DNA from: Bacteriovoracaceae bacterium
GTDB taxonomy: Bacteria; Bdellovibrionota; Bacteriovoracia; Bacteriovoracales; Bacteriovoracaceae
Length of the DNA stretch: 10,188 nt
Direction: 5' to 3'
NCBI GenBank assembly: GCA_049599895.1
Contig: JBMYPC010000111.1
Span: 1-10,188, forward strand
This document shows, one piece after another, positions 1,539-6,318 of the stretch. Both the position numbers and the translations under genes were made by a program. The notes under the pieces were generated by a model that searched no databases, was not told the DNA's origin, and worked only from the letters and a program-made list of their open reading frames with translations. The stretch's first letter is position 1; every line of letters starts with the position of its first letter.

Positions 1539-3196
1539 GCCATTTTGAAATTCCACTTCCTCCAACAGGATCGGAGCTGACTTGTAAAGGCTGGCACCAA
1601 GAAGGCGCTTTGAGATGCCTTCTTAATAATCTTCACCCTGAAGTTGCCGAAGACCGAGACAGTCTCATTGTCTATGGTGGCAACGGACAGGCTGCAAGAA
1701 ACCCTGAGTCCCTCAAGGCCATCATTGACGCATTAAAGAACCTCGAAGACGACCAAACTCTTCTCATTCAAAGTGGAAAACCAGTTGCCGTTGTTCCAAG
1801 TAACCCTCAAGGGCCAAGAGTTCTCATCGCCAACTCAAACCTTGTCCCTCATTGGGCCACATGGGATCAATTCAATCACTTTCAAACTGAAGGTCTTATG
1901 ATGTACGGTCAAATGACAGCAGGTTCTTGGATCTATATTGGCTCACAAGGAATTCTTCAAGGGACTTATGAAACCTTTATGGCCGCAGCTGAAAAGCATT
2001 ATGGAGAAGGCGCAACTCTTAAAGGCAAACTCGTTCTCACCGCTGGTATCGGTGGAATGGGTGGAGCTCAACCTCTTGCTGTAAAAATGGCCGATGGAGT
2101 TTTTCTAGGCTGTGATGTTTCAGTCGATCGAATTCAAAAAAGACTTGATTCAAAATATCTCGACACTCTTTGCGAGAGCTATGACGAGGCCATTGAGCTG
2201 GCACTTAAGGCGAAAGCTGATGGAGTGGCCACTTCTATTGCCGTGGTTGGAAATGCATCTGAGTTTTTTAAATATGTTCTTGATAAGGGAATCTTTCCTG
2301 ATCTTGTCACAGACCAAACAAGTGCTCACGATCCTCTTAATGGCTATGTTCCCGATACCTACTCTTTACAAGATGCCATGAGTGAAAAGGAAAAGGATTC
2401 TAAGCACTATACAGAACTAAGTTATCAAACGATGCGAAGACATGTTGAATCCATGCTTGAGTTTCAAAAGAAAGGCTCACATGTTTTTGATTACGGAAAT
2501 AACTTAAGAGAAGGGGCTAAGATCGCAGGGCTTGAACATGCTTTTGATTTCCCTGGTTTTGTTCCCGCATACATCCGACCACTTTTTTGTGAAGGCAGCG
2601 GTCCATTTCGCTGGGTTGCTCTCTCTGGAGACCCAGAAGATATCAGAGTGACCGACGAAGCCCTCATGGAGCTTTTCCCTGAAGATAAAAAACTTCATCA
2701 ATGGCTTAAAAAAGCTTCTGAGATGGTTCAATTTCAAGGTCTTCCCTCAAGGATCTGTTGGCTACGATACGGTCAAAGAGAAAAAGCAGGTCTTCTTTTT
2801 AATAAGCTAGTGAGAGAGGGAAAAGTCAAAGCTCCCATTATTATTGGTCGTGATCACCTTGACTGTGGCTCCGTCGCCTCTCCCAACAGAGAAACAGAGG
2901 GGATGAAAGATGGAAGTGACGCTATCAGTGACTGGCCACTTCTTAACTTAATGATCAATACAACTAACGGTGCTTCATGGACATCATTTCACCATGGTGG
3001 TGGAGTTGGTATGGGTTATTCTCAGCATGCAGGAATGGTTATCCTTGCTGACGGAACAGAAGAAATGGACACGAGGTTAAAGCGAGTTCTTAACAGTGAT
3101 CCAGGTATGGGCGTTATAAGACACGTGGATGCTGGTTACGAAAAAGCAAAAGAATTTGCGCCAAAAACGAATATTCAATTCCCAATGGGGCATTAA
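1535..3196 (+). CDS. hutU: Urocanate hydratase (urocanase)
   Basis: 553 aa. Motifs: [43 protein letters not shown] (NAD binding), [45 protein letters not shown] 4-nt overlap with the hutH stop. Confidence 0.98.
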
Positions 3197-4472: not shown

Positions 4473-4865
4473 ATGAAGATCTTTGCAATCCTTTCACTTT
4501 TATTTTTGGCCTCTAGCTGTGGCGATCCAATGGGTCTTAGTAAACAAACTACTGTTTCAACTGATCGCAACACTTCTGTAAATGATGGCAACCAAGTTCT
4601 CTGCCCTCAGGTTTATCAACCTGTCTGCGACACAAATCGAAATATCACTTATTCAAATTCTTGTATTGCTTCAACTCAAGGAGCTTCTCAGGTTGTTGAT
4701 GGTGCCTGCCCTGATAACGGCGGCAGTGATGACTCTTATAAATTTTCGAGCTGCACATGTATTGCAGTAGTTCAGCCTGTCTGTGGCGCTGATGGAAATG
4801 TTTATTCCAACTCTTGTCATGCTGCTTGTGTGAATGTTCCTTATGGAAACCAGTACTGCAATTAA
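4473..4865 (+). CDS. Lipoprotein with two Kazal-type serine protease inhibitor domains (130 aa)
   Basis: The ATG at 4473 gives MKIFAILSLLFLASSC|G, a signal peptide with a lipobox-like Cys. Kazal 1: CPQVYQPVCDTNRNITYSNSC...DGAC. Kazal 2: CTCIAVVQPVCGADGNVYSNSCHAAC...YC. The track start at 4395 overlaps hutI and buries the signal peptide. Confidence 0.88.
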   Translation: MKIFAILSLLFLASSCGDPMGLSKQTTVSTDRNTSVNDGNQVLCPQVYQPVCDTNRNITYSNSCIASTQGASQVVDGACPDNGGSDDSYKFSSCTCIAVVQPVCGADGNVYSNSCHAACVNVPYGNQYCN

Positions 4866-4877
4866 GACAAAAATTTA

Positions 4878-4893
4878 TGGTATAGAACTTGCT
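4878..4893 (+). promoter_or_regulatory. Sigma54 (RpoN) -24/-12 promoter for the 4919 gene
   Basis: TGGTATAGAACTTGCT: GG (4879-80), exactly 10 nt, then GC (4891-92). Close to the consensus TGGCAC-N5-TTGCW. Intergenic, upstream of RBS GGGAG (4909-13) and ATG 4919. Confidence 0.7.
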
Positions 4894-4918
4894 TATTCTC
4901 CTAATAAAGGGAGAACAT

Positions 4919-5257
4919 ATGAAGCAATTTATCAATATCTTTTTATTTCAAATATTCATTCTCACAGATGTCAATGCAACATTGGTCCGAAGATTTCCAT
5001 GCCCACATGAAAAAAGCAAGCTCACATCCGAAGTAATTAAAAATAAATGGAAATGGATCAAAACATGCGAAAGAGAAAACATTATCAAGTTTATTCTAAG
5101 ATATCACAATCCCAATACATACCCTGTTTATGGCCGCATTGTTGAAAATGATATGCCAACATACTCCGTAGATGATTTCATAATAACAGCAGAGGAAGTG
5201 AATGATTGCAGCATAAAAGAAGATCGAGAAATTCTTTTTGTCTGCTCAATTGAGTAG
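4919..5257 (+). CDS. Small secreted 4-Cys protein (112 aa), paralog of the N-terminal domain of the downstream Hint protein
   Basis: RBS GGGAG at 4909-13. Probable signal peptide ending VNA|T at residue 20. Cys28/50/97/109. KWKWIKTC, TYPVYGRIVEN and CSIKEDREILFVC align with the 5401 gene. Confidence 0.82.
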   Translation: MKQFINIFLFQIFILTDVNATLVRRFPCPHEKSKLTSEVIKNKWKWIKTCERENIIKFILRYHNPNTYPVYGRIVENDMPTYSVDDFIITAEEVNDCSIKEDREILFVCSIE

Positions 5258-5270
5258 TTGTTATAAGCTT

Positions 5271-5315
5271 TTTCATTTCAAAAATGAAACGTCTATTTCA
5301 TATCCGAAACGAAAC
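5271..5315. promoter_or_regulatory. Candidate upstream activator sequences for a bacterial enhancer-binding protein
   Basis: Perfect inverted repeat TTTCATTT-caa-AAATGAAA (5271-5289). Two TTTCA-N5-GAAAC boxes at 5276-5290 and 5296-5310, 20 bp apart, lie about 40-80 bp upstream of the -24 element. Confidence 0.5.
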
Positions 5316-5350
5316 ACCTCTTTTAAACCACTGAAAATACAAATTAAAAA

Positions 5351-5367
5351 CTGGCACTACCATTGCT
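5351..5367 (+). promoter_or_regulatory. Sigma54 (RpoN) -24/-12 promoter for the Hint gene and downstream operon
   Basis: CTGGCACTACCATTGCT matches TGGCAC-N5-TTGCT exactly. Followed by RBS GGAGG (5391-95) and ATG 5401. Confidence 0.85.
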
Positions 5368-5400
5368 CTTTCCGGAAGCAACTAAAAAACGGAGGAAAAA

Positions 5401-6282
5401 ATGGAATTAGGAAAAAAAGTTGTTTTAGCAGTAACTCTACTTTCATCTATTGCAAACGCAAAGTTTATTACAGGACGTTGTCCAGAAATGGATAAAAACT
5501 TAAATGTAGAGAAGGCCAAGGCTCGTTGGGCATGGGTGAAAAAATGTGATCCTGTTTCTTATCGTTACAATGTGAAGTTTAAGAAAACTAACGCTGGATC
5601 GGGAGTTAGTTATCCAATTTTTGGAATAGTTGAAAATTATGAAACTGGAGATTTTAAGCTAACTGGCTACGTTGCTCCTACAAAAGCTGATGCAGAATGT
5701 AACATCCCTGAAGGTCACGAGATTGTCGCTTTTTGTGTTGCTGGTTGCTACACTCCAAATCAAGAACTCTCTTTTGGTCTCTCAAAAGATCAAGGTCGTT
5801 CTTTTTCCTTTAATCGTGATGAAGCTTTTACAATTAAACCACAGTATGCTCTTTCTGTTGCAGCCAACTCAAGTCTCAACAATATTGAACCAAAATATCG
5901 AAAAGTACTAAAGTTAACCGAATCACTTGTTGCTGAGAACAATTCTATTCTTAAGTTTGAGCTTTCCTCAGGAAAAACTCTCGAAGTAACAGAAACTCAT
6001 CCTATGGTCTCTGGTCGTGGAATGATGAAAGAAGCTCAAAGTTTTAAAGTTGGCGAGTCCTTTGTCACAAAAGATGCCCTAAAAGATGAAATTGTTTCGA
6101 TCTCCAAAAAGAGTTTCTATGGAAAAGTCTGGAATGTTGCTGTTAAGGCACCAACGAGAAATGAAAGACTTGTAGTCGCTAATGGTTATCTCTCCGGGGA
6201 CATTAGTTTTCAAAATGAAAACTCAAAGTTTCTCAACCAGCTTGTTATGAGAACTCATCTACCAAAAGAACTCATTCAATAA
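5401..6282 (+). CDS. Secreted protein: 4-Cys N-terminal domain, Hint (Hedgehog/intein-like) autoprocessing domain, short C-terminal tail
   Basis: Signal peptide ending ANA|K at residue 20. Hint block A G115|C116YTPNQ, block B LEVTETHPMV (T197-x-x-H200), EAQSFKVGESF, block F KVWNVAV, block G VVANGYLSGD. No homing endonuclease. Confidence 0.88.
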   Translation: MELGKKVVLAVTLLSSIANAKFITGRCPEMDKNLNVEKAKARWAWVKKCDPVSYRYNVKFKKTNAGSGVSYPIFGIVENYETGDFKLTGYVAPTKADAECNIPEGHEIVAFCVAGCYTPNQELSFGLSKDQGRSFSFNRDEAFTIKPQYALSVAANSSLNNIEPKYRKVLKLTESLVAENNSILKFELSSGKTLEVTETHPMVSGRGMMKEAQSFKVGESFVTKDALKDEIVSISKKSFYGKVWNVAVKAPTRNERLVVANGYLSGDISFQNENSKFLNQLVMRTHLPKELIQ

Positions 6283-6295
6283 AATCAAAACTTCA

Positions 6296-6318
6296 GGGGC
6301 ACATCCGTGCCCCCTTTT
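6296..6318 (+). terminator. Intercistronic GC hairpin: weak intrinsic terminator or mRNA stabiliser
   Basis: GGGGCAC-atcc-GTGCCCC (6296-6313), then CTTTT, directly abutting the next RBS AGGAG (6319-23). Confidence 0.65.

Follow-up and report, generated by a model that had tools for sequence, protein, structure and literature searches.

The gene at 4919-5257 of the window (the whole stretch of DNA that was analysed, 10,188 nucleotides, representing one whole contig of a 3.27-Mb assembly) encodes a free, Hint-less paralog of the front domain of its downstream neighbour, the Hint-fused protein encoded at 5401-6282. As a preceding sequence-only reading had proposed, a Hint-fused form and a divergent free form of one small domain are thus encoded in the same genome. 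Both genes lie in the order Kazal lipoprotein, free gene, fused gene, S8 lipoprotein, helical protein and MACPF-like gene, and the Kazal lipoprotein gene is preceded by what we take, from its open reading frames, to be a histidine-utilisation-like operon. The features of this region are the following:

4878-4893, + strand: sigma-54-like -24/-12 box (TGGTAT-N5-TTGCT) upstream of the free gene; a pattern match of putative function
4919-5257, + strand: free (Hint-less) paralog P0001, 112 aa, with a likely signal peptide (1-20), the four-Cys domain (21-112) and the end C-S-I-E-stop
5253-5264, + strand: out-of-frame Ser-Ser-Cys-Tyr overlapping the stop codon of the free gene, a possible vestige of a lost Hint junction
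5352-5367, + strand: sigma-54-like box (TGGCAC-N5-TTGCT) upstream of the fused gene; a pattern match
5401-5745, + strand: front part of the fused gene P0002, with a likely signal peptide (1-20) and the four-Cys domain (21-115), Arg26-Cys27 and the junction C-V-A-G
5746-6201, + strand: Hint domain of P0002 (residues 116-267) with Cys116, Thr197-x-x-His200 and Asn245, and Gly266-Asp267 at the His-Asn positions of inteins
6202-6282, + strand: conserved tail of P0002 behind the Hint domain (residues 268-293; Gln271, Asn279, Arg284), the predicted docking site for the helical partner
6329-8176, + strand: likely lipoprotein with a subtilisin-like (S8) domain, a recurring operon member by synteny (D/H/N/S motifs; Pfam PF00082 at E 4.4e-6, above the cut-off)
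8167-8844, + strand: helical partner with an N-terminal hydrophobic stretch, a variable linker and a helical domain of about 160 aa with a conserved GDKxE/D motif; assigned by synteny, fusion and predicted complex
8831-10188, + strand: likely secreted MACPF/CDC-like protein, a recurring operon member cut by the contig end; assigned by language-model likeness of a homologue and by synteny

The hand alignment of the two proteins (112 and 293 aa) on which the earlier proposal was built proved to be real. BLASTP aligned the free protein with residues 27-112 of its neighbour at 31% identity over 91 columns (E 1e-9), and the local alignment score of 101 lay far above the maxima from 5000 shuffles each, 55 with full shuffling and 61 with the cysteines fixed, so that 0 of 5000 reached it in either case. 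Cysteines were located at positions 28, 50, 97 and 109 of the free and 27, 49, 100, 112 and 116 of the fused protein, with C1 and C2 22 residues and C3 and C4 12 residues apart in both, as claimed. Furthermore, in AlphaFold models (pLDDT 78 for the free and 86 for the fused protein, from 58- and 43-row alignments, respectively), the elements of the domain follow in the same order, with two helices first, then a two-strand hairpin and finally one more strand. The signal peptides of 20 aa assigned to both proteins were likewise read in our analysis, as judged by eye. By contrast with the proposed WxW, which was rejected as a family motif, the pattern conserved in the family is R-x-x-W, the R of which is replaced by K in the 4919 protein. 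These two are the only copies of the domain in their genome.

The region of about 92-95 aa is supported as an autonomous domain, which occurs in Hint-fused, dead-Hint-fused and free forms in Bdellovibrionota, Pseudoalteromonas and Zooshikella. Two disulfides, as suggested earlier, are likely: C2 and C3 were lost together in two fused proteins and C1 and C4 together in three free ones, and this reciprocal loss points to the pairing C1-C4 and C2-C3. None of 58 domain sequences matched a Pfam family at E 0.01, no match was obtained among PDB sequences, Foldseek returned no match at E 0.001 and the best VIA-align Z was 2.3, which shows that the four-Cys domain is without known relative and not thereby a new fold. 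No account of the domain, the helical partner or the operon was found in a literature search outside which most subscription journals lay.

The domain profile matched 57 of 401 genomes of the phylum and 11 of 237 genomes of the family, and among these 11 a free copy was present only in the genome studied here; the Hint-fused proteins of same-family genomes are named in public sources as Halobacteriovorax proteins, which makes the host a member of this family of Bdellovibrionota. In the phylum sample, where matches outside the retrieved loci were classed as fused by open-frame length, eight genomes carried a complete Hint-less gene, one of which again lay directly upstream of a fused copy. A profile-based count of the kind proposed earlier yielded 104 Hint-fused proteins against 46 without detectable Hint among the best 150 of 186 representative proteins. 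Six of the 46 were fragments or frameshift-like and were excluded from the free/fused counts, as were locus L057 (contig end) and locus L059, in which the Hint domain begins and then stops. Word-based protein searches found one relative only and no short relative, and a scan of the collection with P0044 gave no match; a weak match in G023 with internal stops and a match in G360 that was not recovered in later searches were dropped. The free state required 21-22 changes on a weakly supported tree as compared to about 45 with shuffled labels, and it therefore probably arose many times. At 2473-3102 (-) of locus L060, a free lipoprotein form ending in C-T-V-E-stop lies among genes that by eye are integrase-like and conjugation-like, which suggests that it is carried on a mobile element.

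After the last cysteine the free protein reads S-I-E-stop and the fused protein V-A-G followed by the first Hint cysteine, exactly as had been described, and this coincidence was taken to be meaningful. However, an ending in exact register turned out to be ordinary. In 30 single-domain Hint-less relatives (remaining of the 46 once 6 fragmentary or frameshifted, 6 multi-domain and 4 C4-less proteins had been removed; some metagenomic proteins among the 30 are perhaps cut by contig ends), the tail after C4 comprised 2 (one protein), 3 (six), 4 (seven), 5 (two), 6 (six) or 7-16 residues (eight), i.e., the mode is four, the range 2-16, and only 6 of 30 share the three-residue ending; exact register was accordingly rejected as a constraint. 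The short free genes in the loci end 2, 3, 3 and 4 residues after C4. Since Hint-less copies are common and only this minority end so, the free protein gives no independent support for cleavage between Gly115 and Cys116, as it had been held to do; the site is assigned because the first Cys of the Hint domain itself lies four residues after C4 in 99 of the 104 fused relatives. Nor does the free gene simply encode the equivalent of the already-processed product, given that four commonly kept residues (Arg before C1 and Asp10, Arg20 and Pro75 of the profile) have been lost.

The Hint domain recognised earlier in the 5401 protein was confirmed. P0002 alone had no match in Pfam, and at E 0.01 PF14890 was matched by 30 of 43 relatives, members lying below the cut-off on both PF14890 and PF07591. 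The family profile matched a BIL domain and inteins among PDB sequences (best E 1.1e-6; top match 2lwy), and Foldseek with the P0002 model returned inteins, BIL (BIL2) and Hedgehog (best E 1.5e-7), in accordance with which residues 116-267 are a Hint domain. In 98 full-length relatives, the catalytic Cys1 was conserved in 96, Thr in 93 (Ser in 5) and His in 98. An assignment as intein or type A BIL was rejected, as the His-Asn positions of inteins hold Gly in 96 and Ser, Thr or Asp in 93 of these 98 proteins. As Cys116 and Thr197-x-x-His200 are kept and the terminal His-Asn is absent, the domain likely cleaves only on its N side, between Gly115 and Cys116. The tail of about 26 residues behind it is conserved as well (Gln in 95, Asn in 87 and Arg in 92 of 98), and PF01079 (Hog) was matched by 3 of 43 members (best E 1e-4). 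In four dead-Hint paralogs from Pseudoalteromonas, Cys1 and the tail Gln are lost and the tail Arg is kept in all four; natural dead-Hint copies of this genus in which the whole Hint region is retained are encoded at L137 11174-14215 and L138 10973-11851. A second, unrelated protein with a C-terminal Hint domain and without four-Cys domain is encoded in the own genome (G000:C262:3-1454, +), and loci L010-L015 carry genes that by eye are pilin-like or pilus-associated beside proteins ending in Hint with the related end signature NGIPTGDLTTQ.

Among solved sequences the BIL domain 2lwy is the closest, and P0002 resembles BIL domains (PDB 2lwy, 6y75) in its likely N-terminal cleavage without splicing, attributed to type B in PMC7765530. 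Type A, defined there by its conserved C-terminal His-Asn, differs in this respect from the P0002 family, to which the fixed front domain, the conserved tail and the dedicated partner gene are particular. A closer analogy may be drawn to the Hedgehog autoprocessing domain (PDB 1at0, 6tyy), with which P0002 shares the Hint fold, the C-terminal position and, probably, chemistry on the N side only, and P0002 might work like Hedgehog-type N-side processing, for which handing the front domain to an acceptor has a precedent (PMC7765530). Unlike Hedgehog, P0002 is bacterial, has no Hedge domain (the 58 sequences without a Pfam family also lack Wart and Ground N-terminal domains) and ends in a much shorter tail; whereas Hog carries its own sterol-recognition region, the tail here is predicted to bind a separate protein. 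The genomic pattern of fused plus free copies is shared with the hedgehog-related families of C. elegans, in which secreted N-terminal domains (warthog, groundhog, ground-like, quahog) occur with Hint/Hog and as many paralogs of the N-terminal domain only, according to PMC1636047, although these families are eukaryotic and their domains apparently unrelated. With a bacterial subgroup of C-terminal Hint proteins (e.g., MXAN_6253 and plu1731), credited to Dassa and Pietrokovski (2005) in the sections on it in Burglin (2008; PMC2362128), the P0002 family shares the signal peptide, the C-terminal Hint domain without His-Asn and, as judged by eye, an end marked by G-x-x-x-G-D/S-x-x-x-Q with a short tail behind it. 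However, the N-terminal regions of that subgroup, of about 400-500 aa with two conserved cysteines, are by eye unrelated to the 95-aa four-Cys domain, and those same sections make no mention of a partner gene, an operon, free paralogs or dead-Hint copies.

Across families, the fused gene is repeatedly followed by the S8 lipoprotein, the helical protein and the MACPF-like gene, in this order. The helical partner gene at 8167, missed in the earlier reading, is the constant companion and was found in 47 of 57 fused loci, of which about 20 are close kin and from which the partner profile itself was built. Of the ten loci without a match, one is the own locus, which is cut short, one holds a weak fusion, seven have less than 2 kb of flank and in one the gene is absent within 8.9 kb. 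In one lineage (L003/L027), the partner is fused behind the Hint domain. Prediction of a complex between P0002 (21-293) and the partner (66-225) scored 0.73 as compared to 0.00 for the best of three controls, a mark that 116 of 157 solved complexes attained, as against 2 of 215 mismatched pairs; the runs agreed in at least 71% of contacts, with a partner pLDDT of at least 84. The tightest contacts are formed between the tail around Arg284 and the partner helix at the conserved GDK motif, so that the predicted docking site is the conserved stretch behind the Hint domain, which the free protein lacks. To our knowledge, no complex of this kind has been solved, and for the partner itself no convincing Pfam family or PDB relative was found. 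The partner is unlikely to be a catalyst, because its alignment contains no conserved Cys, Ser or His. In Pseudoalteromonas loci, a single partner gene is accompanied by two genes with an active Hint, one to three with a dead Hint and several free ones. A lipoprotein-like signal was detected by a crude screen in 14 of 31 long fused members, which speaks against the view that the system generally serves membrane anchoring. One such protein, of about 900 residues, is encoded at L128 8394-11135 (-) and comprises a lipoprotein-like signal, by eye PKD-like and Cys-rich stretches, and then the domain and Hint; proteins of this type are widespread in family f9 and are always followed by the helical partner.

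Based on these observations, we propose, with the chances evenly balanced, that the fused form docks, cleaves itself and likely transfers its domain to an acceptor, and that the free gene supplies a non-reactive variant. Both proteins would be exported via their signal peptides and, judging from the sequences and the paired cysteine losses, form the C1-C4 and C2-C3 disulfides, leaving Cys116 free. The fused precursor would then bind the membrane-tethered helical partner via residues of about 272-293, as predicted and as supported by synteny and one fusion, and the Hint domain, given its fold and conserved catalytic residues, would form a thioester between Gly115 and Cys116; as His-Asn is absent, neither splicing nor a cut at the far end is expected. 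In the least certain step, an acceptor and not water would resolve the thioester, which is favoured over hydrolysis because a C-terminal Hint domain frees only itself, and after plain hydrolysis the outcome would be no different from the product of a Hint-less gene. The free paralog, which probably arose by local duplication and lost Hint, lacks the docking tail and the Arg of the fused copies and would be released unmodified; the much-changed surface of the one encoded here would likely give it another or weaker binding target, and the decoy or cap suggested earlier would be a hypothetical role.

Plain hydrolysis is part of a rather unlikely alternative, by which Hint domain and tail serve as a handle for folding or export that is later removed, with the partner acting as a tethered chaperone and the free genes giving a product of the same kind without it. 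The build of the partner (anchor, linker, helical domain, no catalytic residues) would fit a chaperone, and 24 of the 30 free ends fall 2-7 residues after C4. Moreover, dead-Hint copies persist with their docking tail, which implies a non-catalytic use of the Hint module. However, dozens of free copies exist without the handle, which is hence unneeded for making the domain, and nearly all fused copies have retained the tail Gln as well as the catalytic residues.

Doubtful as well is that the domain serves the MACPF/CDC-like protein as an accessory subunit, be it as targeting piece, cap or inhibitor, with free copies tuning it; either Hint chemistry would allow this. In three genomes of one genus, two to three free copies in tandem immediately precede three MACPF-like genes, at loci without nearby Hint, partner or protease. 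Additionally, four representatives join the domain to a small module that is also present at the C-termini of MACPF-like proteins. On the other hand, the long fused members of that genus, in which the fused copy, about 900 residues long, bears a lipoprotein-like signal and carries the domain at the far end, as well as several short ones have no MACPF-like gene in the flanks examined. The MACPF label is itself a lead only: the 8831 protein has no Pfam or NCBIfam match, and a homologue is similar in its language-model features to MACPF/thiol-cytolysin clusters (recognition 2297, slightly below the bar). No homology was found between the four-Cys domain and the small module (hhalign probability 0.5%). 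This second, two-Cys module ends MACPF-like proteins and other small proteins beside Hint genes and is also fused behind the four-Cys domain (L061 4733-6649, L131 6083-7534, L137 4447-5157 and 9663-10181), and in L009 (1285-2028) it itself precedes Hint.

With regard to the origin of the free gene, local duplication followed by loss of Hint is suggested by its top BLAST match, which is its neighbour (42 bits; next 34), by the shared boxes and by the Ser-Ser-Cys-Tyr vestige. The two sigma-54-like boxes, one before each paralog, are the only matches in the window (0.07 expected) to a pattern based on the sigma-54 consensus and loosened to fit both sites; a looser pattern had 35 matches in the genome, which encodes an RpoN-box protein, and a box precedes 11 of 46 family genes (both paralogs among them) as compared to 2.8% of random windows. 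The junction motif [SGA][SG]C[YFA] occurs near 3 of 2935 ORF ends in the genome, that of the free gene included. By eye no further Hint likeness follows 5253-5264, where 143 bp are left before the next gene, and trees do not place the 4919 protein beside its neighbour, that clade being merely not rejected (p-AU 0.47).

The free gene looks selected as a protein, since 0 of 5000 neutral simulations (substitutions only) kept the four cysteines and the open frame at 30% identity. Its stop codon is not a sequencing error, as contigs of a second study cover 4767-5268 without a differing letter; the window is present in two DNA runs (seawater and marine), one of which may be its source, and no RNA run is among its listed holders. 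That the 4919 gene is a decaying duplicate, the remainder of which drifts after a frameshift and deletion removed Hint, is in line with the out-of-frame vestige, the loss of residues kept in other free copies, the very long branch and the lack of an orthologue both in the 237 genomes of the family and among the short proteins covered by the search, and is nevertheless quite unlikely in view of the retained open frame, with four Cys, Trp and Tyr-Pro still present at 22-31% identity, beyond all neutral runs, and of an intact promoter-like box and ribosome-binding site (AAAGGGAG, preceding the ATG), found with identical sequence in the second study.

The 4919 protein is the most diverged free copy, with an end branch of 2.6-5.4 as compared to medians near 0.6, and its divergence could predate a recent loss of Hint. 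Asp10, Arg20 and Pro75 are kept in 78-97% of free relatives and lost in the 4919 protein, which is the only one of 40 free representatives to miss Arg20. Arg before C1 was present in 65 of 65 active-Hint, 4 of 4 dead-Hint and 9 of 16 free genes of the loci, in 0 of 7 short free genes with genomic context, and in 101 of 104 fused as compared to 15 of 40 free representatives; this link between Arg and Hint was not significant after kinship correction (median p 0.5; four well-supported independent pairs).

Returning to docking and transfer as the preferred reading, a bolder version that we consider improbable as a whole is that of a bacterial Hog split over two proteins: a secreted Hint domain would act with a membrane-tethered protein in place of the sterol region, and the thioester would serve to attach the small binding domain covalently to the surface of prey, to a partner subunit, to a lipid or to some other target, with free and dead-Hint proteins as non-covalent versions. 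In one Bdellovibrionota genus, the domain might then be displayed at the tip of a lipoprotein stalk of about 900 residues, and the repeatedly evolved free and dead-Hint paralogs would compete with the fused form or diversify its targets. How secreted bacterial Hint domains use their thioester has been an open question since their discovery, and a precursor of 273 residues, a candidate partner with a predicted interface and dead-Hint and Hint-less paralogs as natural controls make a tractable test set in a family present in cultured genera (Halobacteriovorax, Bdellovibrio, Pseudoalteromonas, Zooshikella). Should transfer be directed by the partner, Hedgehog-like ligation would be split over two bacterial genes and might provide a protein-ligation tool.

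At 4473-4865 (+), two genes upstream of the subtilisin-like lipoprotein, a likely lipoprotein with two Kazal domains is encoded, of which no homologue was found in 40 other loci screened and which could be an inhibitor of the subtilisin-like lipoprotein. In the gap that separates the fused gene from the S8 gene lies a GC-rich inverted repeat that runs into T's (6295-6313, +); it could act as a terminator or stabilising hairpin, raising the transcript share of the fused gene.
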